Assembly: GCA_048938105.1 (NCBI GenBank)
Contig: JBHLMN010000012.1
Location: 132,876 to 196,875 of the forward strand
DNA length: 64,000 nucleotides
Direction of reading: 5' to 3'
From: Promethearchaeota archaeon
GTDB taxonomy: Archaea; Asgardarchaeota; Heimdallarchaeia; Hodarchaeales; Hodarchaeaceae
A program made the translations under genes and the position numbers. Shown here in pieces: positions 1,917 to 46,969 of this stretch (position 1 is the stretch's first letter; the number at the start of each line of letters is the position of its first letter). The notes under the pieces are model-generated. The model did not search any database and was not told the origin of the DNA. It saw only the letters and a program-made list of their open reading frames with translations.

Positions 1917-2659
1917 CTTCAATATTAGGCATAATAATGATTCTTGTATTTTATTTTTGGGCGATTATTCTTCTAATATCAACTCGAAAATTCATTCAAT
2001 TTTGGTTTGAAACTCGTGAGGAATCTTTCTTACATCTTATGTTGATTACGGTTTACCCAGCATTTTTACTTGGTATAATGGCCAGTTATTATATAATATT
2101 AACTATAATTACTCCTGGGGAAGATATAAAAATCCCTACACTGCTAGGAAGTGCATTTACGTATGGATTTTTTTTAGAATTCTCCTTCTTTTATCTATCC
2201 TTATTTAACAATAGTAGACGCTATTTTGAAAAATATATCCCAGTTTTATTCGGATTTACCCTGTTGTTATCTATTTTAGAAATTATCATAAATGAAGAGC
2301 TTTATTCAATAGATTTATTAGACAATACACTATTTTTGGTATCGTTAATTATGATGGTTTATCTATGCGTCCGTATTTATGGTAATTTGCGACAGAATAA
2401 ACAGTTTTTTGATGATCAAGAAAAAGAATTCATAGATTTGTTAGAAAAAATCACGCTTATCTTTTTATTCATATCTATTTTTGACGGATTAGTGCATGCA
2501 ATTATGTCTCTTCAAATAAATTACTTTGATGAAGCCTACATGATTATTGCGATTATTTCATTGGGTTTATTAGGTTTAATCTTTTTATATTGTAAGAGAC
2601 TTGTTGAGGAACGCACCAAGAATATTGACTGGATAGCTTTCTTTAATAATATCTCCTAA
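1913..2659 (+). CDS. Multi-pass (about 7 TM) membrane protein, unknown function
   Basis: Long ORF with alternating hydrophobic helices, translationally coupled to the upstream small ORF. No family recognised. Confidence 0.5.
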   Translation: MTSILGIIMILVFYFWAIILLISTRKFIQFWFETREESFLHLMLITVYPAFLLGIMASYYIILTIITPGEDIKIPTLLGSAFTYGFFLEFSFFYLSLFNNSRRYFEKYIPVLFGFTLLLSILEIIINEELYSIDLLDNTLFLVSLIMMVYLCVRIYGNLRQNKQFFDDQEKEFIDLLEKITLIFLFISIFDGLVHAIMSLQINYFDEAYMIIAIISLGLLGLIFLYCKRLVEERTKNIDWIAFFNNIS

Positions 2660-2663
2660 GTAT

Positions 2664-3185
2664 GTGTTGAACTCTCATATATTCGAAGTGTGGAGAAAAA
2701 AAATGTCTTATACACAATCCCCTCATCTAACTGATGAAGAAATTGAACTATTTCTAAAGGAACCTCATGTTGCTCGGATTTGTACTTTCAATAAAGATGG
2801 TACAATTCATGCTGTTCCTGTTTGGTTTAAATATGAAAAAGGACTATTTACTATCGCTTCTCCCGAGAAAAGTCGTAAAACGAGAAATATGTTAAGAAAT
2901 AATAATCTAACGTTATTAATCGATGTTGCAGGGCCACCGACAAGAGGGGTGATAGTATATGGTAAAGCAGAAGTTGATTTTACTGAATGGGATTCAGAGG
3001 CTCTCTCTTTACTTGAAAAGTATCTGCCAAAGGAGGATGCTAAAAAATCTCTTAATGGGTTGAATAAACTTACGAAATGGGTAAAAATCTCCATTTCGCC
3101 TACTCATATGGCGTCTTTCGATTATGGAAAAGATGAAAAATATTGGAACGCAGTAAGTTATAGTGCAGGAGCTGGTCAACAGTAA
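2664..3185 (+). CDS. Pyridoxamine 5'-phosphate oxidase (PPOX)/FMN-binding split-barrel family protein
   Basis: HVARICTFNKDGTIHAVPVWF and RGVIVYGKAEV look like the PPOX-like family. The track start is a GTG; the ATG at 2703 (MSYTQSPH) is more likely. Confidence 0.5.
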   Translation: MLNSHIFEVWRKKMSYTQSPHLTDEEIELFLKEPHVARICTFNKDGTIHAVPVWFKYEKGLFTIASPEKSRKTRNMLRNNNLTLLIDVAGPPTRGVIVYGKAEVDFTEWDSEALSLLEKYLPKEDAKKSLNGLNKLTKWVKISISPTHMASFDYGKDEKYWNAVSYSAGAGQQ

Positions 3186-3444
3186 TTTAGGATTTAATCG
3201 AATAAAGTATGATATTTACATTAAAATTCTTGCACGAATACTATTTCCAACGGTTATCAATCACGACAGATTCCCAAGATAATAAAATATCTGTGTTGTA
3301 TTACAGGGAATTGAAACAATAGAAGATAAATTAAGATAAATGCTATTTGAAGAAATATTAAATCGAAAATTATAATCTGAATCAACAACTTAATCCTTAC
3401 TATTAAGTAAAACAGCAAAAAGCAGATAGAGGAGCAAACTGCCA

Positions 3445-4125
3445 TTGTGGAAACAAAATGTCGTGAAAAGGAAATTTATAGGAATTCCAGTCCTGTTAAT
3501 TTACATAAATTTAATTTTAATTCTTTGGCCACAGTCATACGATAAAGCCACTGTGCTGAATTTGCTAGCAATCTTGTTATTCAGCGTATTTATTGGTGGA
3601 GATGTATTATTTCGACCGCTTTGGGTTGGTAAAGAAAAAGACCAGTTTAGAAAAAGTACCCTCTTTATTTTTCTATTATTCTTTATAGTCCCATTTCTCC
3701 TATATTTTCCCTATATTGAGTACCAAGCATTCCTTCAGCAATTCATTCCATCCCCGATCGTTTTAGTGATGGGAATAATTGGTAATCTCGTGTTGATTTT
3801 TGGAGGGATTCTAATGATTTGGAGTAGGCTTCTCCTTGGACCATATGGGACACCCAAGATCGTAATTAAAGACCATCATCAATTAATTACTCATGGAGTT
3901 TATCGATATATCCGTCATCCTCTCTATTTAGGTTATATTCTATTGTTATTTGGGTATACTTTTGCTTTTGGAAGTCTTTTCTCTTCCTGCCTCATCATTG
4001 GTTTCATGCTTCCTTTAACTAAAAGTAGAATGGATTTAGAAGAAAAATTACTCCTAGCTAATTTAGGAGAGAAATATAACAACTACATGAGACAGACAAA
4101 ACGGTTAATTCCTAAGATTTATTAA
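3445..4125 (+). CDS. ICMT/PEMT-family membrane methyltransferase-like protein
   Basis: Multi-TM protein with HGVYRYIRHPLYLGYILLLFG followed by EEKLL..LGEKYNNY. TTG start in the track, so the true start is uncertain. Confidence 0.65.
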   Translation: MWKQNVVKRKFIGIPVLLIYINLILILWPQSYDKATVLNLLAILLFSVFIGGDVLFRPLWVGKEKDQFRKSTLFIFLLFFIVPFLLYFPYIEYQAFLQQFIPSPIVLVMGIIGNLVLIFGGILMIWSRLLLGPYGTPKIVIKDHHQLITHGVYRYIRHPLYLGYILLLFGYTFAFGSLFSSCLIIGFMLPLTKSRMDLEEKLLLANLGEKYNNYMRQTKRLIPKIY

Positions 4126-4130
4126 AAATG

Positions 4131-4138
4131 TTTTTTTT
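4131..4138 (+). terminator. Oligo-T tract after the ICMT-like gene (between convergent genes)
   Basis: T8 run immediately after the stop at 4125. Archaeal termination commonly uses oligo-T. Confidence 0.3.
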
Positions 4139-4165
4139 AATGCTAACCAGAGAATCTGAATATAT

Positions 4166-4993
4166 TTATTCAAATCTAAAATGAACAATGCGTGACATTT
4201 TTCTGATAAATGGAATAAACCTTAATATTTTGAATATTCCCACACGTGCTTCTTTATCATTAAAAAAAGACCACTCACTAACCAGTCGGAGATTCGGAGC
4301 CCATTTCTCAATGTCGTGAAGATTATTTACCCCCCATTTAAATTCTGCTTGAAATTCTTTAAGACCAACATTTTTATTTGCTTCTTTAACCATGAAATTA
4401 GTGTACACATCAAAAATAATTTCTGCATTTGGAAATGAAATAGATAGTTTTTGGAAAAGAGATTGGACATCAGTTTTTGGTAAGTACATTAGAACTGCTT
4501 CAGCAATAAAAAGAACTGGACATTCAACTTTTGATGCCAGGGCTAGTATTTGCGGAATCCATGAATAATCAAGAATTGAACAACCAACAAATGGATTTCT
4601 TAGTGTTTCAGATAGGAGTTTTCTTCTAACAATAATAACTTCTGGAAGATCAATATCAATAAAGGTAAGAAGACCATTATCGAGCCGATCAAAACGTGTG
4701 TCTAATCCTGATCCCAAACTAATAACAATACCATTTGGATATTTTTCAAGATAACTACGAATTCGATTATCAAAATAACGCCCTCGAAGGGCATGACCGA
4801 TAATCGCGGGTTTTTCTAAAGATTTTTGGAGAGTAAGAAAGTCGAAATCCAACTTTTCTAGGAGTTCTATGGCTTTTTTATCGTTTAAAATAGGCTTTGG
4901 TGACTTTGCATCTAATGTTCGAGAGAGCAATGGGAAGAATAATGTATTTTCAACTCTTGTAAGTTTTTCTACTTTAATTGCCTCATTTCGCAT
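4166..4993 (-). CDS. SAM-dependent methyltransferase, leucine carboxyl methyltransferase/TcmP-like family
   Basis: The VISLGSGLDTRFDRL motif and the following DIDLPEV strand are typical of LCM-family O-methyltransferases. Confidence 0.6.
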   Translation of the reverse strand: MRNEAIKVEKLTRVENTLFFPLLSRTLDAKSPKPILNDKKAIELLEKLDFDFLTLQKSLEKPAIIGHALRGRYFDNRIRSYLEKYPNGIVISLGSGLDTRFDRLDNGLLTFIDIDLPEVIIVRRKLLSETLRNPFVGCSILDYSWIPQILALASKVECPVLFIAEAVLMYLPKTDVQSLFQKLSISFPNAEIIFDVYTNFMVKEANKNVGLKEFQAEFKWGVNNLHDIEKWAPNLRLVSEWSFFNDKEARVGIFKILRFIPFIRKMSRIVHFRFE

Positions 4994-5770: not shown

Positions 5771-5801
5771 GCTTATAATTCAGAGAATTTAAATTGACTT
5801 T

Positions 5802-6482
5802 GTGAGAGATCTTTCAAAAATAACAATAGTCATTCAAATGATCCTTGCTGTTCCATTCATCATCATTTTTGCAGGAGTAATGCTCTTCATTCCAGCTGGA
5901 ACAATTGATTGGATCGAGGGGTGGATTTATATCCTTTTATTAATTGTTTACTACCTTACTATGACTATATATTTAATTATCAAGGATCCATCAACACTGA
6001 GAAAACGTAAAAAACTGTCTACTAGTAAGATTGAAAATTTTTTCCTTGTTATTCTGGGTTTGTTGTTCTTTCCATTGATAATTATGCCAGGCTTTGATTA
6101 TAAATTCCAATGGACACAATTACCAAGTTTAGTTAGGATAATTGGGTTTTTTGGGCTTGTATTCTCATATATCATTAACTTCTGGGTCATGAAAGTAAAT
6201 TCTTACGCTTCAAAAGCTCTAATAATACATGAAAATCATATAGCAATAACGATTGGACCCTATGGAATCGTACGACATCCAATGTATGTGAGTTTTATAC
6301 TTCTAGCTTTTAGTACGCCAATTGCACTCGGTTCATTAGTATCCATACTCTTGGCGATACCAATACCCTTTTTACTTGTCTTTCGGATCCGTAAAGAAGA
6401 AGAAATGTTAAAGAAGAACCTTTCAAGCTATATTGAATATACCGAAAAAGTTCGTTATCGTTTAATTCCCAAAATATGGTGA
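5802..6482 (+). CDS. ICMT/PEMT-family membrane methyltransferase-like protein
   Basis: GPYGIVRHPMYVSFILLAF followed by RKEEEMLKKNL..YIEYTEKV. Multi-TM. GTG start in the track. Confidence 0.65.
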   Translation: MRDLSKITIVIQMILAVPFIIIFAGVMLFIPAGTIDWIEGWIYILLLIVYYLTMTIYLIIKDPSTLRKRKKLSTSKIENFFLVILGLLFFPLIIMPGFDYKFQWTQLPSLVRIIGFFGLVFSYIINFWVMKVNSYASKALIIHENHIAITIGPYGIVRHPMYVSFILLAFSTPIALGSLVSILLAIPIPFLLVFRIRKEEEMLKKNLSSYIEYTEKVRYRLIPKIW

Positions 6483-6573: not shown

Positions 6574-7209
6574 TCATAAAAATTGGCCCATCTCTCTAAT
6601 ATATGGAAGAAAAGAAGGTGTCCTATTAACACATTGCTGATATACTTCTCCAACTCTCTTAATTAAATCTTTATCTTCCATCTTTGCTCCAATAATGAAA
6701 GGAATGAAAGAAATCAATGCAATAAAGATTGCTAATAGATTATTCTTCAATAGAGCTAAACCTATAGCGAGAAAAAAATCTCCAGGATACATAGGGTGAT
6801 GAATATAGGAATAGATATCAGAAGTGACAGCCACTCCTTCTTCGGGAAATAACATATGGATCCCTAATCCATGTGCAATTTCATCAAATCCTGTTTTGCG
6901 TAGATGCTTCTCTAATAAAAACCGCATTAGAATGAAAAATATCCCTCCAATAAGAGCAGCTCAAAAAGGTATTAAAATTAGGCCGTTTATTAAAAGAGTA
7001 TGGAATATACAGGTATTGCCAGTAATAAGAACTGGAATTACATAATGAAAAAAGAAGTATCGATACGCTAAATCCCCATGTTTCTCTCGATAAGCCTTGC
7101 CTTTTGTAGCGAAACCAATAAAAAAGGACAAAGTGATGAGTACGAAAATCAATTGACAAATAATAGCCCCATACCAAGCTAAACCATCAAACCACCAGAA
7201 AATCCCCAT
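6574..7209 (-). pseudogene. ICMT/PEMT-family gene interrupted by an in-frame TGA (6961-6963)
   Basis: ORFs 6961..7209 and 6574..6927 are in the same frame (both upper ends divisible by 3), and my reading joins them as ...LILIPF-TGA-AALIGGIFFILMRFLL.... The distal part carries YIHHPMYPGDFFLAIG and MEDKDLIKRVGEVYQQ. The same frame continues upstream to the ATG at 7320 through a second in-frame stop (TAA at 7267-7269). Confidence 0.55.
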
Positions 7210-11272: not shown

Positions 11273-11914
11273 TCATATCAAAGAGAATTGAATCACTACA
11301 AAGAGCATGATACTAAATGTAATTACTGAAATCACTGTGTCGAATTTTCCTGTCTTTAGAAATGGGATAAATAATGGAGTTTTGCTTTTATAACTAGTAT
11401 AATCAGCGCCAAATTTCTTCAATAGGTACTGATCTTCTATAAGTGCAAGAATAATATAAGCCAGTAGTTGTAAATACCATAGTATTATTGTTTCTTCCGC
11501 TGACAGCCAACTCATACCAAAAAAGAAAGTAATATAAAAATAACTCCACCCTGTCAAGCCAATTGTCAAAAGTAGAAGACCAGTATACTGGGGATGTCTT
11601 ATAAATCGATAAGGGCCAGAGGTGACTAATCCCCTTCTCTTTTTTACGCCGAGATAAACAATTGAATAAATTATCAATACAACGCTTATCATAATCAAAA
11701 TTTTCCCAAAGAATACCTCATTAAAATTGAGAAGGCTGGCATAGCCTTCAATGATACTGCTAGAAAGATTGGGAACCAAGGCACCCAATAACAGAATTAC
11801 AGGAGCAGCCATGAGTGGTATCCATACCCAGATTCCTGGAAGTTGCTGAACTAAAAGAAATAAATATCCAGCCGTGCCAAAAACAATAGCTTGAGCTCTC
11901 TCTAGTTTTTTCAT
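11273..11914 (-). CDS. ICMT/PEMT-family membrane methyltransferase-like protein
   Basis: GPYRFIRHPQYTGLLLLTIG followed by EDQYLLKKFGADYTSYKSKTP. Multi-TM. Confidence 0.65.
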   Translation of the reverse strand: MKKLERAQAIVFGTAGYLFLLVQQLPGIWVWIPLMAAPVILLLGALVPNLSSSIIEGYASLLNFNEVFFGKILIMISVVLIIYSIVYLGVKKRRGLVTSGPYRFIRHPQYTGLLLLTIGLTGWSYFYITFFFGMSWLSAEETIILWYLQLLAYIILALIEDQYLLKKFGADYTSYKSKTPLFIPFLKTGKFDTVISVITFSIMLFVVIQFSLI

Positions 11915-12886: not shown

Positions 12887-13828
12887 TTAGCTTAATATTT
12901 CAATTAATTTGACCAAATCCTCTTTATTGATGGCAACAACATCTGCTTCAGGAAATATATTGCGGTTGTTTTCTGAAATTCCCTGTCCTCCGATTGCAAT
13001 ACGAATTTGGTTTTTGAAAACATTATGTAAATACTCTAAATTTCGTTTAAGAGTACCAAGATATAACGGAAGGGTAATGGAGATAAATATCCAATCAGGT
13101 AATTCAGGAAGATCTTTGATATATTTGATTAAGGATTGGATGGGTAAAGCTCGCCCCAGATTAATAATCTTGTAATTTAAATCCCGAAGAATATATTCTA
13201 AGGCAAATAAACTGAGAACATGTCTTTCACCTTCTACAGGTACTAAAATGATAATTCCTTTTTCCTCTATATTTTCATTTACTGGTATTCTTGCAACGAT
13301 TAGCTCTTCAACGCGATTAGAAATAATGTGTTCTTCCGCAGTTGAAAGATTCGCTTGAGCCCATTGTACACCGACCTCATGCATTAGTGGTGTGATAAAA
13401 TCAACAATAAAGGGTGTACTATTAGGAAACATTGATTCTATGTTTACTGAGAACTCCTCAACATCATAATTTGATGATTTCAGATATCTGATCATTTCTT
13501 GTATGGAGGCTAATTTTAAAACAGAGGGTTTTTCTATTCTTCCTTTCTCCTCAGGCTTCTTCTTTTCTTTTAATATCTCATTCTCATGTATATATAGTTC
13601 TTTGATTAGATCATCAGTTAAATATACAACAGTATACCGCCCCCGTTTAAGTGGGCGTCGTTCGATTTCGATATAACCTTGTAAATTTAGTTCTTTTATG
13701 GCATTAGAAATTGTTGAACGTTTAAGATCTAAATTGGATGCAAGTTCAGAAACAGGGACTTCCCTTCCGCGATTTTGCCTTAAGTATCGAAAAATACGAT
13801 CTCTGGCTGGTAATTGGACATTTTCCAT
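12887..13828 (-). CDS. CarH/LitR-like cobalamin-binding (putative light-sensing) regulator with an N-terminal winged-helix domain
   Basis: N-terminal wHTH (VPVSELASNLDLKRSTISNAIKELNLQGYIE). W156-x9-E166-H167 lies in VQWAQANLSTAEEHII. The B12-binding Rossmann part has GIIILVPVEGERH203VLS, ISITL and IAIGGQG. The gene sits immediately downstream of crtB. Confidence 0.7.
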   Translation of the reverse strand: MENVQLPARDRIFRYLRQNRGREVPVSELASNLDLKRSTISNAIKELNLQGYIEIERRPLKRGRYTVVYLTDDLIKELYIHENEILKEKKKPEEKGRIEKPSVLKLASIQEMIRYLKSSNYDVEEFSVNIESMFPNSTPFIVDFITPLMHEVGVQWAQANLSTAEEHIISNRVEELIVARIPVNENIEEKGIIILVPVEGERHVLSLFALEYILRDLNYKIINLGRALPIQSLIKYIKDLPELPDWIFISITLPLYLGTLKRNLEYLHNVFKNQIRIAIGGQGISENNRNIFPEADVVAINKEDLVKLIEILS

Positions 13829-13897
13829 AAGGCATTGTTACCTTCTTATTGATATTCTTATGATTTCTTCATGACTTACTCTTATTTTATGAACCAG

Positions 13898-14842
13898 CTA
13901 AAGTTTACGAAGGTACTCTAAACGTACTTTAGTTGCCAAAATAATCTTTCTTAGTTTAGAAACAACTGCCCGTTGATTTAATATTTGATAATCAATTCTT
14001 TTTATCTCATTTAGAATTTCCCCATAGACTCTTGAGGCCACTTTTACAGTATAAGCTCCTGCAGGTGGTAATTCCTCAATACCAAGATCAGCTATCTTAT
14101 AAAGAGCTTTCGCTCGCTCTGATTCGTAACGAATGAGTGATTTGAGGTTCTCATTCACTTTATCACCCCTTAGATCCTCAATCGTAACCTGATAATCATT
14201 CCGAGTTTCTTCTGGTAGATATATTCGCCCCTTGAGGAAATCCTCTTTGATATCTCTTAATATATTGGTTAATTGCATTGCTCTACCTAGATCTGCAGCT
14301 CGTGCTAGAGTTCGTTTTTCTGGATTTTTGATGAAGATGTGAGTCATCATTAAACCAACAGTACTTGCAACCCGATACATGTATAAGTCAAGTTCTTCTT
14401 CTGAATAGTACTCGGTTTTTATAAGATCCATTCTCACACCTTCTATAAGCTCATGCATGTAATTAACTGGAATTTGATGTTTACGTAACGTATCTCCAAA
14501 GGCATGAAGGATAGGATTTGTAGAGCTATATCCATTGGCCAATTTTGTTATAGTACTTTTCAATCGATCAAGTTCAAAATTAATCTTATCAATCGTAATC
14601 CCCTTAGGGGCTTCATCAACTATATCATCACTTAAACGACATATAGCATAGAGAGCAGCAACGCTTTTACGCTGATCTTCAGGTAAAAATCGACTAGCGA
14701 AATAGAATGACTTGCTATGCTCTATCATCCAGTCTAGACAGATTTGATAGCTTTCTTCAAGTGTTTCATCCATCAAACTATGTTTAGGTGTCGTACTTTT
14801 GGGAAGAAGTTCCCAATCAATTGTTTTGTGAGTTGAATACAT
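13898..14842 (-). CDS. crtB: Phytoene synthase
   Basis: Squalene/phytoene synthase motifs FYFASRFLP, YAICRLSDDIVDE (first Asp-rich) and NILRDIKEDFLKGRIYLP (second Asp-rich). Confidence 0.85.
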   Translation of the reverse strand: MYSTHKTIDWELLPKSTTPKHSLMDETLEESYQICLDWMIEHSKSFYFASRFLPEDQRKSVAALYAICRLSDDIVDEAPKGITIDKINFELDRLKSTITKLANGYSSTNPILHAFGDTLRKHQIPVNYMHELIEGVRMDLIKTEYYSEEELDLYMYRVASTVGLMMTHIFIKNPEKRTLARAADLGRAMQLTNILRDIKEDFLKGRIYLPEETRNDYQVTIEDLRGDKVNENLKSLIRYESERAKALYKIADLGIEELPPAGAYTVKVASRVYGEILNEIKRIDYQILNQRAVVSKLRKIILATKVRLEYLRKL

Positions 14843-14864
14843 TTTCTAATTCACTTATTAATAT

Positions 14865-14891
14865 TTCATGAATTAGTTCAACTTCATGAAT
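14865..14891. promoter_or_regulatory. Two copies of the 8-bp palindrome TTCATGAA in the divergent crtB / crtI promoter region (candidate operator)
   Basis: TTCATGAA at 14865-14872 and 14883-14890, 18 bp apart, both followed by T. They lie inside the 135-bp crtB-crtI intergenic region. Confidence 0.35.
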
Positions 14892-14977
14892 AAACATTTA
14901 AATATTTTTCGAATGTAGGTAATCAATCAAAAAAGTGTCATTTGTCAAGTAGACATTACTTTTTTGGATAAATAAAA

Positions 14978-16561
14978 GTGAGAAAAATGAGTAATGGACA
15001 TAATAAACGTAATATAGCCTTTGATAATAAAAACCCTGAAACGTTTCTCGAATCAGTGGTAATTATAGGCTCTGGGATTGGTGGACTGGCGGCGGGAATA
15101 CGCCTTCAGACAACAGGAAAATTTAATGTTACTATTATAGAAAAACTAGACCAAGTTGGTGGTCGGGCCAGAGTCTTTAAAGATCAAGGGTTTACTTTTG
15201 ATGGAGGTCCTACGGTAATAACTGTACCTGACATTTTTAAGGATTTATTTACTTTACCTGGTCGAAAAATGGAGGATTATGTCGAATTAATACCAGTGGA
15301 GCCGTTTTATCGAATCCATTTTAACGATGGGACATTTTTTGATTATTCTACTCCGGAAAAAAATATACCTCAAATTGAAAAAGTAAATCCTGAAGATGTA
15401 GAAGGATATAAACGCATGCTTAAAGCAGTTCGACCGATCTACGAGAAGGGGTTCAAAGAATTATCATTTAAACCTTTTAACAAGTTTACTTCAATGCTTA
15501 AAGTAGCTCCCTCCCTCATCAAGTTACAATCATACCGTTCAAATTATAAATTTGTCTCTAAATATATAAAAAATGAGAATCTCCGAATGGTATTTAGTTT
15601 TCACCCTTTACTTATTGGGGGGAATCCTTTCTCGGTTCCATCAATTTATAGTCTTATTCAATACCTGGAAAAAGAATTTGGAGTTTGGTTTGTGCGTGGT
15701 GGTACAAATGCTTTAGTTCAGGCGTTAGCAAACTTATTTGAGGAGCTTGGGGGTAAAATCATTTTGAATAGTGAGGTTAAAAAAATTGAAGTTAAAGATA
15801 ATCAAGTAGAGGGCGTTTTAACTGTTTCGAATGATTTTTATCCAAGTAAAATCGTAATAAGTAATGCTGACCCCGCTTTTACATACACAAAAATGATTGA
15901 TGCAGAGTGGCGCAGGAAAAACAGTGATAAGCGTTATAAAAAAGCGAAATATTCTATGGGATTAGTTGTAATTTATTTTGGAACGAAAAGACAATATCCA
16001 AATATGAAACATCACACTATTATTTTGGGTCCCCGGTATAAAGGACTAATAGAAGATATTTTCAAGAAAAAGATTTTAGCAGAAGATTTTTCGAGCTATT
16101 TACATCTCCCCACTCGGACTGATCCAAGTTTAGCTCCTGAAGGACATGAAGCCTTTTATATCCTGATTCCCGTCCCTCATCAAGATTCTGGTATTAATTG
16201 GGAAGAAATGGCTGAACCATTTAAACAACGAATCTTTGATTTTCTGAATGAAAATTATCTCCCTGAACTAAAAGAGAACTTAGTGACAGAGCGAATTTTT
16301 ACTCCTCTAGATTTTGAACGAGACTATAATAGCTTTAAAGGATCTGGTTTTTCTGTTGAACCAATTTTTACTCAATCAGCGTGGTTCCGTCCACATAACA
16401 AATCTGAAGATATTGATGGTCTTTATTTAGTGGGTGCTGGAACCCATCCAGGAGCAGGATTGCCTGGAGTTGTCTCCAGTGCAAAAGTAACCACAGATTT
16501 GATCATCAATGGGAAAAATGGATTTTCAAAAAAACCCTCTGGAATAAGTAATGCTAATTAG
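14978..16561 (+). CDS. crtI: Phytoene desaturase
   Basis: N-terminal FAD fold VVIIGSGIGGLAAGIRLQ, C-terminal LYLVGAGTHPGAGLPGV, and the length and order typical of CrtI. The track start is a GTG; the ATG at 14987 is likely. Confidence 0.85.
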   Translation: MRKMSNGHNKRNIAFDNKNPETFLESVVIIGSGIGGLAAGIRLQTTGKFNVTIIEKLDQVGGRARVFKDQGFTFDGGPTVITVPDIFKDLFTLPGRKMEDYVELIPVEPFYRIHFNDGTFFDYSTPEKNIPQIEKVNPEDVEGYKRMLKAVRPIYEKGFKELSFKPFNKFTSMLKVAPSLIKLQSYRSNYKFVSKYIKNENLRMVFSFHPLLIGGNPFSVPSIYSLIQYLEKEFGVWFVRGGTNALVQALANLFEELGGKIILNSEVKKIEVKDNQVEGVLTVSNDFYPSKIVISNADPAFTYTKMIDAEWRRKNSDKRYKKAKYSMGLVVIYFGTKRQYPNMKHHTIILGPRYKGLIEDIFKKKILAEDFSSYLHLPTRTDPSLAPEGHEAFYILIPVPHQDSGINWEEMAEPFKQRIFDFLNENYLPELKENLVTERIFTPLDFERDYNSFKGSGFSVEPIFTQSAWFRPHNKSEDIDGLYLVGAGTHPGAGLPGVVSSAKVTTDLIINGKNGFSKKPSGISNAN

Positions 16562-17385
16562 TGGAAGAAATTGTAATGTTAACATATTTCATCTTCCTCC
16601 TTTTCTTTATTGTTATACCTTTGATGGTAATCAGTTTTTTTTATTATAAGAAATATCGTGGAGGGGAAGAATATCAAAAAACGATGATAAAAAAAATCTT
16701 AATTGTGTTAGCGATATTAATAATTGTAGCTATTACTTATACTACTCCATGGGATAATTTTCTCGTCGAAAATGGCATTTGGTATTATGAGACATCGAAA
16801 GTTATGGGTATTTTAATTGGTTTTGTACCCATTGAAGAATATGGCTTTTTCGTATTGCAGACTCTCTTTATTGGATTGCTATTCGGATGGATTCTGCTTC
16901 ATAGAAAGAAAATCAGTCATAATCAGAATAATTTTAGAGTTAATTTACGCCTGATTTCAGCGATTGGGCTACTTATTGTTTGGATTGTAGGATTTCTTGC
17001 ATTTATTAACAGAATAGAAACTTTAACTTATCTGAATTTAATCCTTTTATGGGGAATACCTCCAATAATGATTCAACTGATCTATGGCGCTGATATTCTC
17101 TGGTTGTACAATCGAGACCTTATCTCAGTCATCTCTCTCTCAACTATTTACTTAGCTATTGCAGATACTATTGCGATTGCAGATGGAATCTGGACAATTA
17201 GTATAAATACATCAACAGGGATTCTTTTGGCTGGAGTTTTACCTATTGAAGAGTTTGTCTTTTTCTTGGTCACTAATATATTAATTACTTTTGGATTAAC
17301 CTTAATGATTGATTCTAGGAGTATTGATAGATTTCATCAATACTTTTCTAGATTAAAAGAACACAAGTGGAGAAATAAGTTATGA
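16561..17385 (+). CDS. crtY: Lycopene cyclase, fused CrtYc/CrtYd (heterodimer-type) domains
   Basis: Polytopic protein with two repeats of the lycopene-cyclase-domain pattern (TPWDNFLVENGIWYY ... PIEEYGFF; second half PIEEFVFF). Likely ATG at 16576. Follows crtI directly. Confidence 0.75.
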   Translation: MEEIVMLTYFIFLLFFIVIPLMVISFFYYKKYRGGEEYQKTMIKKILIVLAILIIVAITYTTPWDNFLVENGIWYYETSKVMGILIGFVPIEEYGFFVLQTLFIGLLFGWILLHRKKISHNQNNFRVNLRLISAIGLLIVWIVGFLAFINRIETLTYLNLILLWGIPPIMIQLIYGADILWLYNRDLISVISLSTIYLAIADTIAIADGIWTISINTSTGILLAGVLPIEEFVFFLVTNILITFGLTLMIDSRSIDRFHQYFSRLKEHKWRNKL

Positions 17386-17502: not shown

Positions 17503-17955
17503 ATGTTAAATAACGTAATAGAATATCTTAATGAGTCTGTAATACCTTTGCGGCTTTCTGGTACCACTAAATCAGGCTGGCCATTTGTAATGAGCCTTTG
17601 GTATGTTTATTTAAATGAAAAAATTTACTTAGCAACTATAAAATCAGCTAAAGTCGTTGATTATCTTTCTAATAACCCCAAATGTGCTTTTGAAATTGCC
17701 AGTGATACTCCACCTTATTGTGGGATTCGAGGACAAGCAATGGCAAAAATTATTGAATCTAAGGGGGATGAAATTCTAAAAATCCTTCTAAATCGTTATC
17801 TAGGAGGAGAAAATAGTCCTTTAGCCCGAAGACTGTTGAATCAACGTATACCAGAGGTTGCGATTGAGCTTACTCCTGTTAAAGTGTATCAATGGGATTA
17901 TAGTAAGCGAATGATTGACTCGATTGAATTTTCTTCAGTTAAAAAGTGTCCATAA
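17503..17955 (+). CDS. PPOX/FMN-binding split-barrel family protein
   Basis: About 150 aa. GWPFVMSLWYVYLNEKIYLAT and IRGQAMAKI resemble PPOX-like proteins. Confidence 0.45.
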   Translation: MLNNVIEYLNESVIPLRLSGTTKSGWPFVMSLWYVYLNEKIYLATIKSAKVVDYLSNNPKCAFEIASDTPPYCGIRGQAMAKIIESKGDEILKILLNRYLGGENSPLARRLLNQRIPEVAIELTPVKVYQWDYSKRMIDSIEFSSVKKCP

Positions 17956-17992: not shown

Positions 17993-18412
17993 ATGTCAGA
18001 TATCAAATATTCTGCTGGAGTATGCAATATCGGTGACGCTGAAATAAAACAAAGACGTCGATTAGGATATATAGGCATTGGTCTTACTGTGATAGCAATT
18101 ATTGTATATTTAGGATTGATTTATTCTATAAAATTAGATCCATTCTTTGGAGTGATTATTTTCATACCTGCTGAAATGTCAGCTATTGGGTTAATTCAAG
18201 CTAGGAACAAATTTTGCGCTGCTTATGGATTGATTCACCAACAGAACGTTTCCTCAAGCTTAGGCTTAACTGTGAAAATAGGCAATAAAAATTCCCAGAG
18301 AAAGGATAGGAACAAAGCTCTTAAAATTATTTTTCAATCCCTAGTAATTGCGATTATCATTACTGTTTTTACAGTTATTGGAGGGATTTTGATAGCTCAA
18401 AGTATTATTTAG
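17993..18412 (+). CDS. Small membrane protein (3 TM), unknown function
   Basis: Hydrophobic helices. The N-terminal CNIGDAEIKQRRRLG resembles YgaP-like/DUF2892 small membrane proteins (weak recollection). Confidence 0.35.
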   Translation: MSDIKYSAGVCNIGDAEIKQRRRLGYIGIGLTVIAIIVYLGLIYSIKLDPFFGVIIFIPAEMSAIGLIQARNKFCAAYGLIHQQNVSSSLGLTVKIGNKNSQRKDRNKALKIIFQSLVIAIIITVFTVIGGILIAQSII

Positions 18413-19284: not shown

Positions 19285-19773
19285 CTAGTCATCTATTTTC
19301 AGAGTTTGAGTTTTAAGTAATTTATAATTTTTAGGAAATCCCCAATCTTCAATCTTATTGTAACTTGTTTTTTTTGATCGAAAATGTACCCATATTGTTG
19401 TACTATCAAGAAGTGGATTAGCATGGTAATGCTTTTGATCACCATATCGAAAAGCTTCTAGTACTAGGGGTAATTCCTGACGAAAAATTCTATCACGAAA
19501 CTTTAAAGGGCCAATTCCCCCACTTACTTGACAATAGACATGGAGTGAATATACATTTTCGGTTTTCAACCATTCAGCTAACACTTCATCCCGCATTATC
19601 CGTGTTTGCCATCCTTTTAGTTGTTTTTTGTTAAACTCATGGGCAATGGTGAGAAATAAATCTCCTGTCCGATCTGAATGGGTTAATGTATAGCAACGAG
19701 GTACTAGAGGAGAATCAATGGTTGTTGGGGGTATAAATGTAACATTTAGTTTATTTGGGTTTAAGCGATTCAA
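19285..19773 (-). CDS. Staygreen (SGR) family protein, Mg-dechelatase homolog
   Basis: PRCYTLTHSDRTGDLFLTI, QLKGWQTRIMRDEVLAEW, SLHVYCQVSGG, ELPLVLEAFRYGD and IWVHFRS...KIEDWG are collinear with the plant SGR core as I remember it (PRRYTLTHSD..., LQGW...RDEVVAEW, LHVHCHISGG, ELPVVLKAF.HGD, VWVYFHS...ECWG). Confidence 0.75.
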   Translation of the reverse strand: MNRLNPNKLNVTFIPPTTIDSPLVPRCYTLTHSDRTGDLFLTIAHEFNKKQLKGWQTRIMRDEVLAEWLKTENVYSLHVYCQVSGGIGPLKFRDRIFRQELPLVLEAFRYGDQKHYHANPLLDSTTIWVHFRSKKTSYNKIEDWGFPKNYKLLKTQTLKIDD

Positions 19774-21314: not shown

Positions 21315-22085
21315 TCAATAATCTTGACGAGCTTTCCAGAAATCACCATAAAAGAAAAATCCAATCAGTTGAGAAAATACGAATATTATTGATATAACTA
21401 TTCCTAAATACTGTAATATAAGAATTTGATTACTATGGAAGATATACAGAGGGATAAAGTTCAATAAGAACCAAATCCACGAAAGAATTGGAGCAGATAT
21501 GAACATAAGAGATCTTTTCCATTTTGAAACAGATAAGAAGGAACTCAAATCATATTTTATTCCAAAAATAGGAAGTTTCGTTATAGGTGTCCAAGCTAGC
21601 AAGTTTGATTTACGAAATGTGGATTTGAAAATAAAATAATTTCTAAAGTTTAATCCTAAAAGAAAACCAAATATGCAATGGATTACGGTATGAGAGAGCA
21701 TAAAGTTTACAAAACTGATTAGAAAGAACAAAATAACACTAAACCAAAAATCTACAGAAAAATAAAAGGCTAAAAAATAAAGAATTTCTGAGATGAGAAC
21801 ACCAACTGAGAATAGTAAAGTTCCGACTTTAATTGAAAATTTTGGAACGTTCCAACTATCGAAGAAGAATTCATCAATTCTCCCTAAAATATCTATTTCT
21901 TCCTCTGTTATTTTTACTTTTCGTGCATATTTTACAGCAGTTTGATATTTTCTCCAATGACTCTTCCGATTTAATGTTCCTGTTTCATATGAATCCTCTA
22001 AATCCTTGATATTCCTACTAAAATTAGTGTTATCCATTTGAGAACCTTCCCTAGAACTGTAGTTCTTATTAGTTATACTTAACAT
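21315..22085 (-). CDS. Membrane protein (about 5 TM) with an intramembrane HxxxH motif, unknown function
   Basis: Soluble charged N-terminus of about 75 aa, then TM helices. LSHTVIHCIFGFLLG sits in a helix. The gene lies 59 nt downstream of heliorhodopsin. Confidence 0.5.
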   Translation of the reverse strand: MLSITNKNYSSREGSQMDNTNFSRNIKDLEDSYETGTLNRKSHWRKYQTAVKYARKVKITEEEIDILGRIDEFFFDSWNVPKFSIKVGTLLFSVGVLISEILYFLAFYFSVDFWFSVILFFLISFVNFMLSHTVIHCIFGFLLGLNFRNYFIFKSTFRKSNLLAWTPITKLPIFGIKYDLSSFLSVSKWKRSLMFISAPILSWIWFLLNFIPLYIFHSNQILILQYLGIVISIIFVFSQLIGFFFYGDFWKARQDY

Positions 22086-22144
22086 TATAATTCTAGTGAT
22101 CGAGGTTTGAAAATAAAAAGAGGGGAAGGATCATAATGACCCAA

Positions 22145-22957
22145 TTAAGCAAATATTAACCCCATAAATACAATCCAAGCTAATGCTGATTTTGCAAAGA
22201 GGCTTAATAATTGATAACCTCGTTCTCCATATAGATAATCTTTCCATGGGCCTATTTTCTTATACTGAAGAAACATATTCAAGGCAAAGCTGTTAAAGAA
22301 GACGAAATAAACTACTAAGGCAATATAGACAAAAGTAGGAACTTCTCGTCCAACTGTGTTAATACTCAAGAATGTATCAAGGATGACGATCCAGGGCATT
22401 ATTCCAGCTATCCATCCTAGGATATAAGGAGCCCAGCTTGTTTTTTCAGTATATTGGTTATAAGTCTCCATTAACAACCCAAACATGTTCATTAATCCAT
22501 TAAGCACGAATATCAGAGCAAGAATCCAAAATTCTAGTATTCCAAAAGCTAAAGCAATGAATATGATCATCACTGAACTGGAAAAAGCATACTCATACCA
22601 ACGTACTGGATTCATTTCTTTCTTTAAATTGGTAACATATTTGTTATATAATGGAAAAGCAATCAGTAAATGAGCAATAGCTGACATTAGAAGAAAACTA
22701 GCAAGCAGGATACCTGCAATGTTTTCAAAAGTGAAAAAAACTTCGGGGATAGGCTCAAGAACTGGACGAGTACCAGTTAATTCTTTTATTCCTAAATACG
22801 ACCTATAAATGTCGATTTTGAAGTTTTTTATTTCATCAATTACTAAACTCAGAGCAAATATAACTGTTGCTTGCACTAAGTGCAAGATACCCATGGCTAT
22901 ATTGAATTTCCGGAGATAGGAAAATGATATTTTTGACTTTTCAATGTTAGTTGACAT
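22145..22957 (-). CDS. Heliorhodopsin
   Basis: Seven-TM protein collinear with heliorhodopsin 48C12 as I recall it. LRKFNIAMGILHLVQ matches LQNFNRIAGVFHLLQ. NPVRWYEYAFSSSVMIIFIA matches NIFRWVEYSLSSSVMIVLIA (counterion Glu = E122, codon 22592-22594). FFNSFALNMFLQYKKIGPWKDYLYGERGYQLLSLFAKSALAW matches FFNSFALVQYLQYKGKGKWSNYLRGERAYIVLSLVAKSALAW (Schiff-base Lys = K256, codon 22190-22192). Confidence 0.85.
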   Translation of the reverse strand: MSTNIEKSKISFSYLRKFNIAMGILHLVQATVIFALSLVIDEIKNFKIDIYRSYLGIKELTGTRPVLEPIPEVFFTFENIAGILLASFLLMSAIAHLLIAFPLYNKYVTNLKKEMNPVRWYEYAFSSSVMIIFIALAFGILEFWILALIFVLNGLMNMFGLLMETYNQYTEKTSWAPYILGWIAGIMPWIVILDTFLSINTVGREVPTFVYIALVVYFVFFNSFALNMFLQYKKIGPWKDYLYGERGYQLLSLFAKSALAWIVFMGLIFA

Positions 22958-23176: not shown

Positions 23177-23953
23177 ATGTCTCTTACAAAACAAAAACAA
23201 TTTTTGATTTATGGTAACATCTTGAGCTTTTTATTAACTATCGTGATGAATTCTTTAGCCAACATCCTTCCTTTGAATGGAAAAACAACTGCAGAACTCA
23301 GTGACTCTTTCCCTAACTTATTTGTCCCCGCTGGGTATGTTTTTAGTATCTGGGGATTGATCTACATTTTATTAGCAATTTTCACGGTTTCCCAAGCCCT
23401 TCCCAAGTATAGAGAGGAGGATGTTATTGAAAAAATCTCCTATTTCTTTATTATAAGCAATCTGGCTAATTCATCATGGATTGTATTTTGGCACTTTGAA
23501 ATAATAATCGCATCCTTATTGGTTATGTTGATACTCCTTGTATCTTTAATACTAATCTATACCCGATTAGAAATTGGAAAGAAGCCCGTGAGTGAAAAAA
23601 TTAAGATCACTTCTCATATCCCATTTAGTGTTTACCTGGGATGGATTACTGTTGCAACTGTTGCAAATGTTACAGCTTTACTTGTATCAATAAACTGGGA
23701 TGGTTTTGGCATAAGTGAAGTCATCTGGACTGCAGTTGTAATAAGTGTTGCAACAATAATTGCACTAGTTATCGTATTCACCCGGAAAGACTATGCCTAC
23801 GTTCTTGTCCCCGTCTGGGCTTTTATAGGAATAGCAGTAAAGCAATTAAATACTCAAAACGATGTTGTTATAATTTCTGTTATAGCAGCAGTTATTTTAG
23901 TCATAACATTGCTTGTTAGACTTTCATTGGATTTAGTTCAGAATCGAAAATGA
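23177..23953 (+). CDS. TspO/MBR-related (tryptophan-rich sensory protein-like) membrane protein
   Basis: LFVPAGYVFSIWGLIYILLAIF, NSSWIVFWHFE and PFSVYLGWITVATVANV resemble the roughly 260-aa TspO-like family found in bacteria. Confidence 0.5.
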   Translation: MSLTKQKQFLIYGNILSFLLTIVMNSLANILPLNGKTTAELSDSFPNLFVPAGYVFSIWGLIYILLAIFTVSQALPKYREEDVIEKISYFFIISNLANSSWIVFWHFEIIIASLLVMLILLVSLILIYTRLEIGKKPVSEKIKITSHIPFSVYLGWITVATVANVTALLVSINWDGFGISEVIWTAVVISVATIIALVIVFTRKDYAYVLVPVWAFIGIAVKQLNTQNDVVIISVIAAVILVITLLVRLSLDLVQNRK

Positions 23954-24834
23954 ATGATAATAATTTTAGATCACTAATTACTTCACTCATAATAATATGC
24001 ATTGCTGCATGTCTTGCACTCATTGGTAGCCACAGGGGTATAACTGTTTTTGGTGGAATACCAGTATTTGCACTTGGAGTAGCTATTGCCTTTATAATTC
24101 AATGGATTGCGTTTATACCTGCTTATATCAAAAGAACAGAGAAATTTTTCGATTTGACTGGCTCTTTGACTTACAGTATTGTGATTATTTTTTCAGTTGT
24201 TTTGAGTTCTGAAATCAATATACGATCTATTTTACTGATGTTTTTGGTCTTGATCTGGGCGATTCGCCTTGGTATGTTCTTGTTTAGGAGAATACTGAAA
24301 GAGGGTGAGGATAAACGCTTCAAGGAAATCAAAGAATCAGGTTCGCGTTTTCTATTAACTTGGACTCTTCAAGGTTTGTGGGTTAGCTTTACATTAGCAG
24401 CTGCATTGGCTGCGATCACAGTAAAACAGAGGGTAGAATTTGGCGTCTTTGGTTTAATTGGTCTTCTGGTTTGGATCATAGGCTTTGGATTTGAAGCTGT
24501 TGCAGACTATCAGAAGAGTAAATTCAGATCTATTCCTGAAAACAAAGGAAAATTTATTACTACTGGATTATGGTCGATATCACGACATCCCAATTACTTT
24601 GGAGAGATCCTCCTATGGATCGGTATTGCAATCATTGCACTTCCAACACTTCAAGGTTGGAGATGGCTAACACTAATTTCTCCTATTTTTGTCACATTAT
24701 TATTGACCAAGGTTAGTGGTATTCCATTACTTGAGAAACATGCAGATGAAAAGTGGGGTGGTCAGGAGGAATATGAGCAATACAAAAGTAAGACTCCAGT
24801 ATTAATCCCAAGGCCATTCTTCAAATCAAATTAA
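23950..24834 (+). CDS. DUF1295 / steroid 5-alpha-reductase-ICMT superfamily membrane protein
   Basis: GLWSISRHPNYFGEILLWIG and EEYEQYKSKTPVLIP. Overlaps the TspO-like gene by 4 nt (ATGA). Confidence 0.65.
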   Translation: MNDNNFRSLITSLIIICIAACLALIGSHRGITVFGGIPVFALGVAIAFIIQWIAFIPAYIKRTEKFFDLTGSLTYSIVIIFSVVLSSEINIRSILLMFLVLIWAIRLGMFLFRRILKEGEDKRFKEIKESGSRFLLTWTLQGLWVSFTLAAALAAITVKQRVEFGVFGLIGLLVWIIGFGFEAVADYQKSKFRSIPENKGKFITTGLWSISRHPNYFGEILLWIGIAIIALPTLQGWRWLTLISPIFVTLLLTKVSGIPLLEKHADEKWGGQEEYEQYKSKTPVLIPRPFFKSN

Positions 24835-26468: not shown

Positions 26469-27239
26469 ATGTATATCGAAAAAGATGAAAATAAAACTCT
26501 AGGGGAGGAAATTAGAAGTGAAAACTCCATCAATTTAGTAGTGACAACTTTTCTATTAGGTGTGAGCATTTATGTAGTGGCCCAGCTTATCGGAATATTT
26601 CTTACTACTGAATCATTTGGTCCAATTATCGAAGGAGGAAATGTGTCAAAACTGTTATTAACTCAGTCAATGTTTCTGTTTCTCTCTCTTGTCACTATAT
26701 TTTTTCTGACTAAAGGAAAATTAACTCACTATGGATTAAATAAACCTATCGGAGCAGTAAAATGGGGATATATTATTGGATTAGGATTATTGATTGGTTC
26801 AATTGCTACCATCCTCATTATTGTAACAGGAGCAAATGGAAATCCTGCTTTAACAGGTCTAGGTATTAGAGAAAAAATAGTCTTACTTTGGTTTTTAGCT
26901 AGTATAGCAGAAGAAGTTTTCGTTAGAGGTTTATTACAGGGGTATCTGAATCCTCTAGAGGGTATGAAAATTAGTATTGGTAAGCAAAATTTCTCATATC
27001 CAGTTGTTTTCAGTGCTATATTTTTTGGTACCATCCATCTACCGCTAGTATTTTTTGGGGCAGACCTTATCACAATTTGTATTATCTTTTCAATGACAAT
27101 AACTCTGGGTTTCTTTACAGCCTCTTTACGAGAGAAATATCAAAGTATATTACCTTCAATTGGCATTCATATTACAACAAATATTGGAGGAACAATGCTA
27201 GGTCCAATAATATATGCAATCTTGGTAGGATCAATTTAA
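26469..27239 (+). CDS. CPBP family (CAAX-protease/Abi-like) intramembrane metalloprotease
   Basis: EEVFVRGLLQ (EExxxR), FGTIH and a late conserved His (IGIHITTN) in a polytopic protein. Confidence 0.65.
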   Translation: MYIEKDENKTLGEEIRSENSINLVVTTFLLGVSIYVVAQLIGIFLTTESFGPIIEGGNVSKLLLTQSMFLFLSLVTIFFLTKGKLTHYGLNKPIGAVKWGYIIGLGLLIGSIATILIIVTGANGNPALTGLGIREKIVLLWFLASIAEEVFVRGLLQGYLNPLEGMKISIGKQNFSYPVVFSAIFFGTIHLPLVFFGADLITICIIFSMTITLGFFTASLREKYQSILPSIGIHITTNIGGTMLGPIIYAILVGSI

Positions 27240-27309
27240 TTGGGATCCCCATCAATAGGTGAATAATTCGTTCTCTTAAGTTGTTTCAAGGTCAATATGT
27301 AGTTTCTGA

Positions 27310-27435
27310 TCCCAAAGGTTAAGCTAGCTCCCAAATTCAATGACATTTATTCCAGTAATCATCCCAATCTCACTGGAATAGATCATATTTTTTTTCATTC
27401 TATTTCGATAATATAATTTCATATAGGACTCCCAA
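27310..27435 (+). repeat. Array of four TCCCAA boxes upstream of the second CPBP-like gene
   Basis: TCCCAA at 27310, 27329, 27362 and 27430, all on the same strand, in an otherwise very AT-rich 318-bp intergenic region. Confidence 0.35.
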
Positions 27436-27557
27436 GGAAACCCATGAATTCATTCAGGGAAGGAATTGGGGATGGAAAAAAGATTATTTGCATTATTATT
27501 AACAAAACATTATAAATAAAAAAAAACATTAAATGATATTTGTTTGTGCAGTAGGAT

Positions 27558-46387: not shown

Positions 46388-46969
46388 ATGACGGTATTTA
46401 AGATAGCATTAATTGGTGATGGTGGGGTTGGTAAAACATCGATCCGTGAGCGCTATTTAGGGAATGGATTTAAGACGCAATATCTTCTGACTGTTGGCGC
46501 TGATTTTGCCATGCGGGATGATCATATTAATGGATATCAAGTCCGATACCAAATATGGGACTTAGCTGGGCAACAACGCTTCGATGGTGTCAGAGAAGCC
46601 TATTACACTGGCTGTGTTGGAGCTTTATTAGTGTATGATGTCTCCCGTCCCGATTCGTTCTTCAACATGCCTAAATGGATTAATGAGCTATGGACAAATA
46701 ATGGTCGAGGCCGTGTCCCTATTGTTGTCGTGGCTAATAAGATCGATTTGTGTGATACTTTAGATAACACCGTCTCTCCTCTTCAGGGCCGAACTTTTAC
46801 AAAAAATCTTAGTAATCTCACTGAACCTGATGGTTTTATGTGCCATTTTATTGAGACTTCCGCTAAGACTGGGATAAATGTACCTCAAGCTTTTTCTGTT
46901 CTTGGTGTAAATATTCTGAAATTCATAGAAAATCACCGAATGACTCCATTATTGACATTGTATTCATAA
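46388..46969 (+). CDS. Ras-superfamily small GTPase, Rab/Ras-like (paralog A)
   Basis: G1 GDGGVGKT, switch I TVGADF, G3 WDLAGQQRF, G4 NKID, G5 ETSAK. No C-terminal Cys. Confidence 0.85.
   Translation: MTVFKIALIGDGGVGKTSIRERYLGNGFKTQYLLTVGADFAMRDDHINGYQVRYQIWDLAGQQRFDGVREAYYTGCVGALLVYDVSRPDSFFNMPKWINELWTNNGRGRVPIVVVANKIDLCDTLDNTVSPLQGRTFTKNLSNLTEPDGFMCHFIETSAKTGINVPQAFSVLGVNILKFIENHRMTPLLTLYS

Follow-up and report, generated by a model that had tools for sequence, protein, structure and literature searches.

The CarH/LitR photoreceptors of Thermus thermophilus, Myxococcus xanthus and Bacillus megaterium unite sensor and DNA binder in a single polypeptide encoded in a carotenoid cluster: a four-helix bundle carries a Wx9EH motif, a Rossmann domain carries ExH...SxT...GG, and the operators overlap the target promoter. 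The two motifs together define adenosylcobalamin (AdoCbl) photoreceptors and separate them from the B12-independent CarA (PMC9304148, PMC8156234). Reviews describe CarH homologues as bacterial. The locus considered here lies in an Asgard archaeon of the Hodarchaeales group, on a stretch of 64,000 nucleotides (the window: Promethearchaeota archaeon, GenBank assembly GCA_048938105.1, contig JBHLMN010000012.1, positions 132,876 to 196,875 of the forward strand), where a gene next to the phytoene synthase gene crtB encodes a CarH-type B12 module joined to a winged-helix DNA-binding domain. This protein (the regulator) is best read as a one-component photoreceptor and repressor, CarH-like in action but not a member of CarH/LitR. 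We think it probable that it is an AdoCbl-dependent dark repressor, released by light, which was assembled in Asgard archaea from a CarH-type B12 module and an archaeal winged helix. The gene and the parts of its product are as follows (coordinates are those of the window unless a locus is named):

12887 to 13828, minus strand: regulator gene, ATG start, 313 amino acids, consisting of winged helix, linker and CarH-type B12 module.
13619 to 13807, minus strand: winged-helix DNA-binding domain, residues 8-70, from the AlphaFold2 model (pLDDT about 90), an HTH_11 match and Foldseek.
13514 to 13570, minus strand: Lys/Glu-rich disordered linker, residues 87-105, with predicted local distance difference test (pLDDT) values below 50 and variable in the family alignment.
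13289 to 13504, minus strand: four-helix bundle, residues 109-180, with W156-x9-E166-H167, the motif that in CarH caps the upper-axial 5'-deoxyadenosyl group, from AlphaFold2, a motif script and the alignment.
12893 to 13255, minus strand: Rossmann-type B12-binding domain, residues 192-312, with E201-x-H203, S250-x-T252 and G280-G281.

The original prediction, made by reading the sequence alone, had described a CarH-type light sensor here, and its coordinates for the open reading frame (ORF), residues and codons were all reproduced by script (W156 at 13361-13363, E166-H167 at 13328-13333, and H203, 36 residues beyond H167, at 13220-13222). The motifs it regarded as diagnostic of CarH (W156-x9-E166-H167, H203, S250-x-T252 and G280-G281) are present, with Wx9EH, H203 and the glycine pair invariant in the family. 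Written out, the B12 motif is E201-x-H203-x2-S206-x43-S250-x-T252-x27-G280-G281, which shows two small deviations, S for G/P and x43 for x41, from the published CarH consensus D/ExHx2G/P-x41-SxT/V-x22-27-GG (PMC9304148). In a BLASTP alignment with the T. thermophilus protein (TtCarH; 28% identity over 95 amino acids, pairwise E-value 4e-8), W156, E166 and H167 correspond to W131, E141 and H142, and E201-R202-H203 to E175-R176-H177. A word-indexed search yielded 32 homologues of 302-373 amino acids and 37-78% identity, and W156, E166, H167, E199, H203 and G280-G283 are invariant among them when aligned, so that the CarH-type motif is not a chance resemblance. The recognition helix (residues 37-49) is conserved to a similar degree: S41, N42, A43, K45 and L47 are invariant, and E46 is kept in more than 90%. 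Both Pfam B12 domains are precomputed for homologues in the regulator family, and a profile of the family matches B12 domains in the PDB with an E-value of 2.5e-9.

An AlphaFold2 model built on the 32 homologues (mean pLDDT 85) consists of the winged helix, the disordered linker 87-105, the four-helix bundle 109-180 and the Rossmann domain 192-312. Comparison of a predicted structure with T. thermophilus CarH had been proposed as a check; the four-helix bundle and the five-stranded Rossmann fold, between which CarH holds its cofactor, are both predicted, and a Foldseek search of the PDB with the whole model returns TtCarH in many states (including 5C8A, 5C8D and 8C31, with an E-value of 1e-8 for the predicted model) together with photocobilins, MetH cobalamin domains, a Chloracidobacterium MerR-family B12 domain and AerR, at template modelling scores of about 0.7 relative to the target. 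The photocobilins (8J2W, 8J2X, 8J2Y) are the best PDB matches of all, at E-values of 4e-7 by sequence and 3.7e-10 by structure; they differ in having an added bilin-binding globin domain and in controlling enzymes, with neither a DNA-binding domain nor a link to crt genes. These proteins (PMC10979010) and a photoglobin survey (PMC8717448) have already established the portability of the Wx9EH B12 module, a light sensor joined to varied outputs.

In CarH/LitR the DNA-binding domain is of the MerR type, with an RxWERRY recognition helix. The regulator's N-terminus instead matches Pfam HTH_11 (31.5 bits against a cut-off of 25, E-value 1.6e-7) and, more weakly, MarR_2, HTH_27, ArsR and TrmB; no MerR match was found for it in Pfam. 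A separate AlphaFold2 model of residues 1-85 (pLDDT 89) has helices at 8-18, 26-33 and 37-49 and strands at 53-60 and 63/64-70, and its Foldseek matches are Stf76, the Pyrococcus heat-shock regulator Phr (2P4W), PH1061, SmtB/CadC, MarR and PadR, with no MerR protein in the top 50. As modelled, the domain is a classical winged helix of the HTH_11/MarR/ArsR clan and not a MerR domain; the earlier description of it as an archaeal, ArsR/TrmB-type winged helix-turn-helix (wHTH) thus holds up in both Pfam and fold comparison, the nearest solved structures being archaeal regulators, ArsR/SmtB, MarR and PadR.

About 40 homologues of the whole protein were found. Their source names are all Asgard (Hodarchaeales/Hodarchaeota, Kariarchaeaceae, Hermod-, Thor-, Odin- and Promethearchaeota), in keeping with the archaeal host that had been proposed, except that a cluster mate of the divergent P0040 is labelled Euryarchaeota/Methanobacteriota; a scan of GTDB, at one genome per species, gave ten family loci, all in Asgard metagenome-assembled genomes (MAGs). 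An exhaustive phmmer search of 1.84 billion representative sequences gave 1573 matches at E<=1e-3, of which 15 lie at E<1e-30; below these is a gap down to about 1e-16, beyond which only the B12 module aligns. Wx9EH is present in 172 of 177 fetched proteins, which include the best 150 of these matches, and most of the others are short fragments; this places the module with the photoreceptor-type B12 domains. The nearest B12 modules outside the family (n=129) include 31 joined to MerR, 27 to XRE-type helix-turn-helix (HTH) domains (HTH_3) and one to an ArsR HTH (HTH_5). The term domain-swapped, used in the original prediction, is therefore a fair description of the regulator, but non-MerR fusions as such are not unique to it. 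The XRE-B12 and ArsR-B12 database proteins share a non-MerR HTH fused to a Wx9EH B12 module; they differ in DNA-binding fold and lineage, share about 25-30% identity across that module and in this analysis were not found linked to crt genes, and no published characterisation of them was found in the literature searched. The closest non-family modules, P0046-P0048 (E-value about 1e-15), carry an unrelated N-terminus, KxxGxxYAYLV...KYLG, which has no Pfam match; here the photoreceptor module may have been joined to a further DNA-binding domain peculiar to one lineage. One protein of this type (L020, 6001-6849) lies on a soil contig with cupredoxin genes and does not adjoin crt genes. An assembly or fusion artefact was considered for the regulator and rejected, the same architecture of 302-324 amino acids being found in more than 30 independent assemblies.

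The genes and candidate regulatory sites around the regulator are:

13898 to 14842, minus strand: crtB, phytoene synthase family (SQS_PSY, E-value 1.7e-73), directly upstream of the regulator gene on the same strand.
14978 to 16561, plus strand: crtI, phytoene desaturase (crtI_fam, E-value 1.7e-181), divergent from crtB.
16561 to 17385, plus strand: lycopene-cyclase-domain protein of the CrtY type with two CarR domains (TIGR03462, E-value 2.1e-32, in two stretches).
14865 to 14890, minus strand: candidate operator O1, two exact TTCATGAA palindromes at 14883-14890 and 14865-14872, 18 bp start to start.
14895 to 14911, minus strand: predicted crtB promoter, a TFB-recognition element (BRE)-like CGAAAAA at 14911-14905 and the TATA box TATTTAAATG at 14904-14895.
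13868 to 13893, minus strand: candidate operator O2, in the interval that separates the crtB and regulator genes, made up of TTCATAAA-N10-GTCATGAA with box starts 18 bp apart.

Profile matches thus bear out the predicted position beside crtB and facing a crtI-crtY pair (the NCBIfam CrtB and HpnD models match crtB below their equivalog cut-offs), and the arrangement is widely shared. In 16 of 17 distinct loci the next gene downstream of crtB, read in the same direction and 20-70 bp further on, is that of the regulator, and this linkage extends to the most divergent members (32-38% identity). Divergence of crtI and the cyclase gene from crtB is found in most loci, and the cyclase-domain gene follows crtI in 13. 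The sole member that does not adjoin crtB (L007, 7001-7909) comes from a contig of a soil metagenome, where its neighbors are genes for small GTPases of the Arf/Rag-like kind and for an uncharacterised protein of 1021 amino acids. The crtI ORF as called begins with GTG at 14978; an ATG at 14987 is conserved across eight loci and is, on that comparison, probably the true start, which makes 14843-14986 the crtB-crtI intergenic region.

The interval 14843-14977, which had been singled out for DNA-binding assays, contains the conserved candidate operator O1, which follows the crtB TATA box and precedes the predicted transcription start. Of 15 non-redundant loci, 14 have a pair of TTCATGAA boxes no more than 130 bp upstream of crtB, spaced by 18 bp in the Hodarchaeales clade and by 19 bp elsewhere; in the fifteenth (L003) both the crtI and the crtB promoter have boxes, differently spaced. 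In 222 kb of fetched flanking DNA, searched for pairs with at most one mismatch per box and a spacing of 17-20, only six further pairs occur outside crtB promoters, and all six are O2 sites between the crtB stop and the regulator start (counted from the crtB start, at +949 in the window and L008-L011 and at +956 in L004). Pairs at the other promoters of the window, including those of the heliorhodopsin, TspO-like and Staygreen genes, were looked for over all 64 kb and not found; single boxes with one mismatch were all that appeared. When eight intergenic regions are aligned, the conserved blocks are the BRE-like CGAAA, the TATA box TATTTAAATA and the two boxes, and nothing else. The first box starts 3-5 bp past the crtB TATA box, which we take to fit the archaeal consensus TTTAWATA. 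Since archaeal transcription usually starts about 25 bp from the TATA box, that of crtB is predicted to start at the edge of the second box. CarH/LitR operators are of another kind, tandem 11-bp direct repeats on sigma-A promoters in bacterial hosts, whereas the Asgard candidate consists of two 8-bp TTCATGAA palindromes, 18-19 bp apart, on a BRE/TATA promoter in an archaeal one. The archaeal repressors MDR1, LrpA and Phr bind between TATA box and start site and block recruitment of RNA polymerase; the candidate operator is in the same position, and the DNA-binding domain has Phr of Pyrococcus furiosus (2P4W) as one of its top fold matches, both of which support reading the regulator as a repressor. 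Phr, MDR1 and LrpA sense heat, metals or amino acids, and none of them has a B12 module.

The second site suggests that the regulator gene may be under its own control. The first box of O2 is always TTCATAAA in the Hodarchaeales loci, which gives a TATA-like CATAAAWTA; in the window it doubles as the TATA-like CATAAAATA. Because this box forms a TATA-like element, O2 may be an autoregulated internal promoter of the regulator gene. The case of crtI is less direct. A separate crtI operator was looked for in the window, but no crtI promoter could be defined there, conservation being absent from the half of the intergenic region nearer to crtI. A clear second operator at crtI is seen in L003 (labelled Odinarchaeota) only, and this locus gives the best indication that crtI belongs to the regulon: in its 255-bp intergenic region a TATA box is followed by TTCATGAA boxes at both crtI and crtB (5780-5830 and 5960-6010), spaced by 25 bp at crtI and by 18 bp (with a degenerate second box) and 35 bp at crtB. 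These double operators, and the near-symmetric TATA box that the two directions share, make control of crtI-crtY likely, if less certain in the window itself.

From the motifs, predicted fold, family, gene order and conserved operator described above, we infer the cofactor, the response to light, the oligomeric state and repression rather than activation, in a scheme along the following lines. In the dark, AdoCbl would be held between the four-helix bundle, with W156, E166 and H167 over the adenosyl group, and the Rossmann domain, with H203 as lower ligand. Bound AdoCbl would maintain an oligomer, most simply a dimer, whose winged helices would occupy the two TTCATGAA boxes of O1 and block recruitment of RNA polymerase at crtB; at O2, the same oligomer would cover the TATA-like element ahead of its own gene. 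Near-ultraviolet to green light would split the Co-C bond, and the oligomer would dissociate or lose affinity for DNA. Transcription of crtB and the regulator gene could then proceed, and that of crtI-crtY, from a shared or adjacent promoter, would probably follow. A dimer fits better than a CarH-type tetramer, given two boxes, the missing tetramer residues of TtCarH and a long flexible linker; if the B12 domains pair head to tail, their protomers would run antiparallel, an arrangement to which a palindromic box, readable both ways, might lend itself. Two dimers might also join into one assembly that spans O1 and O2, though this is speculative. Binding of B12 and response to light are predictions. 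The surroundings can be counted in favor of the scheme: in the window a heliorhodopsin gene (PF18761, E-value 2e-85) lies 8 kb from the crt locus, and the last genes of the crtI operon of L008 are those for UvdE and photolyase.

Several findings weigh against a dark repressor released through AdoCbl. Profile searches with the two Pfam B12 models, proposed as a test of the module, gave a divided answer: B12-binding (PF02310; 25.7 bits, E-value 1.1e-5) and B12-binding_2 (PF02607; 18.9 bits, E-value 1.8e-3) are significant by E-value in a single-sequence search, but both fall below the curated cut-offs of 32.1 and 23. The NCBIfam CarH equivalog model NF052513 (TransRegCarH) scores 27.1 bits against a cut-off of 400, over residues 141-240 only, and by profile score alone the module is about equally near CarH and the methyltransferase corrinoid proteins MttC and MtgC. 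H132, G192 and D201 of TtCarH, which provide the bis-His link of the light state, the tetramer interface and, with R176, the dimer salt bridge, align to A157, N218 and A227 (R176 being kept as R202), and in none of the family's proteins is the Trp of Wx9EH followed by His; oligomer and photochemical end state may accordingly differ from those of TtCarH. In bacterial CarH these light-state and interface residues are themselves common, not universal (PMC9304148). Scanning of about 60 of the ORFs in the window against Pfam revealed no genes for B12 synthesis, uptake or adenosylation, and many Asgard MAGs come from dark sediments. In most loci, moreover, a single operator pair serves the divergent crtB/crtI region, which makes control of crtI less certain. 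A corrinoid protein of a methyltransferase system was rejected in spite of the similar MttC and MtgC scores: the regulator combines a DNA-binding domain with the Wx9EH cap and is encoded among crt genes, and MttC lacks Wx9EH where it can be aligned.

Some of these points would also suit a crt repressor indifferent to light, its B12 module serving as a scaffold for oligomers, as it does in Myxococcus CarA, or sensing cobalamin supply or redox state: the residues that give TtCarH its bis-His light state and its dimer salt bridge are not kept, genes of B12 metabolism are not found nearby, and dark sediment is home to many Asgard lineages (PMC12137139). CarA-type proteins, however, have lost the Trp of Wx9EH (PMC9304148), while in the Asgard family that motif and the lower-axial His are invariant. 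The target genes, moreover, make photoprotective or retinal-precursor pigments, and the neighbors are a heliorhodopsin gene and, in L008, those for photolyase and UvdE. AdoCbl under a Wx9EH cap is, from the photochemistry of CarH, inherently photolabile. A regulator without a light response is, all told, unlikely. The light-driven alternative, an activator or a protein that binds DNA in the light state after the manner of AerR/CrtJ, could appeal to the B12 photoreceptor modules that work through partners or in the light state, and AerR is among the structural matches. It is hard to reconcile with the boxes, which at crtB come after the TATA box but before the predicted start and at O2 overlap the TATA-like element: such positions repress in archaea, where activators usually bind upstream of the BRE. 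The regulator also has a DNA-binding domain of its own and needs no partner, and we regard activation or light-state binding as very unlikely. The pairing of regulator and boxes is putative, and an 8-bp palindrome is unusual as the site of a winged-helix protomer, so that the TTCATGAA pairs might be sites of another factor, or promoter elements, with the wHTH-B12 protein acting elsewhere or having a non-regulatory corrinoid role. To this we give the least credence: the pairs travel with the regulator gene over 32-78% protein identity and occur directly before it as well, the recognition helix is as invariant as the box, and the regulator has no methyltransferase corrinoid context, all its nearest relatives having the photoreceptor motif.

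Among repressors of carotenoid genes, the MarR-type CrtR of Corynebacterium glutamicum offers a partial parallel to the proposed dark repressor, as a winged-helix protein encoded beside the crt operon that it controls; carotenoid production inducible by light has also been reported (PMC5401885, PMC6739363). It differs in sensing isoprenoid pyrophosphates, in the lack of a B12 domain and in being bacterial.

The literature searched on CarH and B12 photoreceptors with archaea, Asgard, Heimdallarchaeia or Hodarchaeales contained no description of the wHTH-B12 Asgard family, and a passing mention in reviews of B12 photoreceptor architectures is possible. With moderate confidence, the regulator is predicted to be the first light-sensing transcription factor of Asgard archaea and apparently the first based on B12 in any archaeon. 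In this view the wHTH-B12 photoreceptor was put together independently and reads an operator code of its own, paired TTCATGAA boxes, on a BRE/TATA promoter; in the Hodarchaeales clade a dimer of dimers might link O1 and O2, which flank crtB at a distance of 1 kb, in a repression loop that light would open. What is new here is the candidate operator. CarH photoreceptors have been described as bacterial and always of the MerR type; in the regulator the same B12 light module would be rewired to an archaeal winged helix and an archaeal, eukaryote-like promoter. Evidence for the use of light by Asgard archaea has so far consisted mostly of rhodopsin genes, and the present locus would provide a concrete, testable light-response circuit in which protein, operator sequence and target genes are all named. 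If the prediction is correct, the spread of the family over Hodarchaeales, Kariarchaeaceae and MAGs labelled Thor-, Odin- and Hermodarchaeota would make light-regulated pigment synthesis old and widespread in the archaeal relatives of eukaryotes. As its DNA site is unrelated to that of CarH, the regulator could also serve as an orthogonal green-light optogenetic switch.

Variants of the locus add some detail. Four longer proteins, P0020 and P0033-P0035 (366-382 amino acids; L012, L014, L015, L017), have an extra wHTH beside the conserved one, upstream of the B12 module; it comes after the conserved wHTH in P0033 and before it in P0020. The crtB promoters of these loci still have two boxes at 19-bp spacing. 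A second crtI is found downstream in L014, L015 and L017, and a second crtB downstream in L014 and L015. A 2025 study of Ca. Kariarchaeum pelagium reported two genes of unknown function in its crtB/crtI locus and only linear-carotenoid genes (PMC12137139). On a Kariarchaeaceae contig (L004, 447-1190 and 3919-4893), the crt locus includes the regulator and a protein of 247 amino acids that is 41% identical to the cyclase-domain protein of the window, and the two unassigned Kariarchaeum genes may be these.

Further genes of the window, two of them conserved passengers of the crt locus and the others a pigment and light neighborhood, are:

17503 to 17955, plus strand: PNPOx/F420-type protein, 150 amino acids, syntenic in L008, L009 and L010.
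17993 to 18412, plus strand: membrane protein of 139 amino acids with no family match, syntenic in L008, L009 and L010.
21315 to 22957, minus strand, 23177 to 23953, plus strand, and 19285 to 19773, minus strand: pigment and light genes (heliorhodopsin, a membrane ORF of 256 amino acids, TspO/MBR-like, Staygreen).

The PNPOx-like gene comes after crtY in the window and in L008-L010, and after the regulator gene in L012, L014, L015 and L017. In L008, a 78%-identical Hodarchaeales locus, the divergent crtI-crtY operon continues (1964-4240) with a gene for an uncharacterised protein of 398 amino acids, the PNPOx-like gene, a membrane protein of 140 amino acids, UvdE and DNA photolyase, an arrangement that suggests a broader light-damage operon. 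The heliorhodopsin gene has beside it the multi-pass membrane ORF of 256 amino acids, with TspO/MBR-like and Staygreen (Mg-dechelatase family) homologues nearby; the membrane ORF has no family match even at E<=10 and so cannot be called a Blh-type carotene oxygenase. No tRNA genes were detected by a tRNA scan of the window. Elsewhere the window is unusually dense in ICMT/PEMT-type membrane methyltransferases, to which are added two Rce1-like CAAX prenyl proteases and two Ras-family GTPases (3445-4125, 5802-6482, 6574-6927, 11273-11914, 23950-24834, 26469-28742, 46388-46969 and 52814-53437), a set that resembles the eukaryotic CAAX-processing toolkit.

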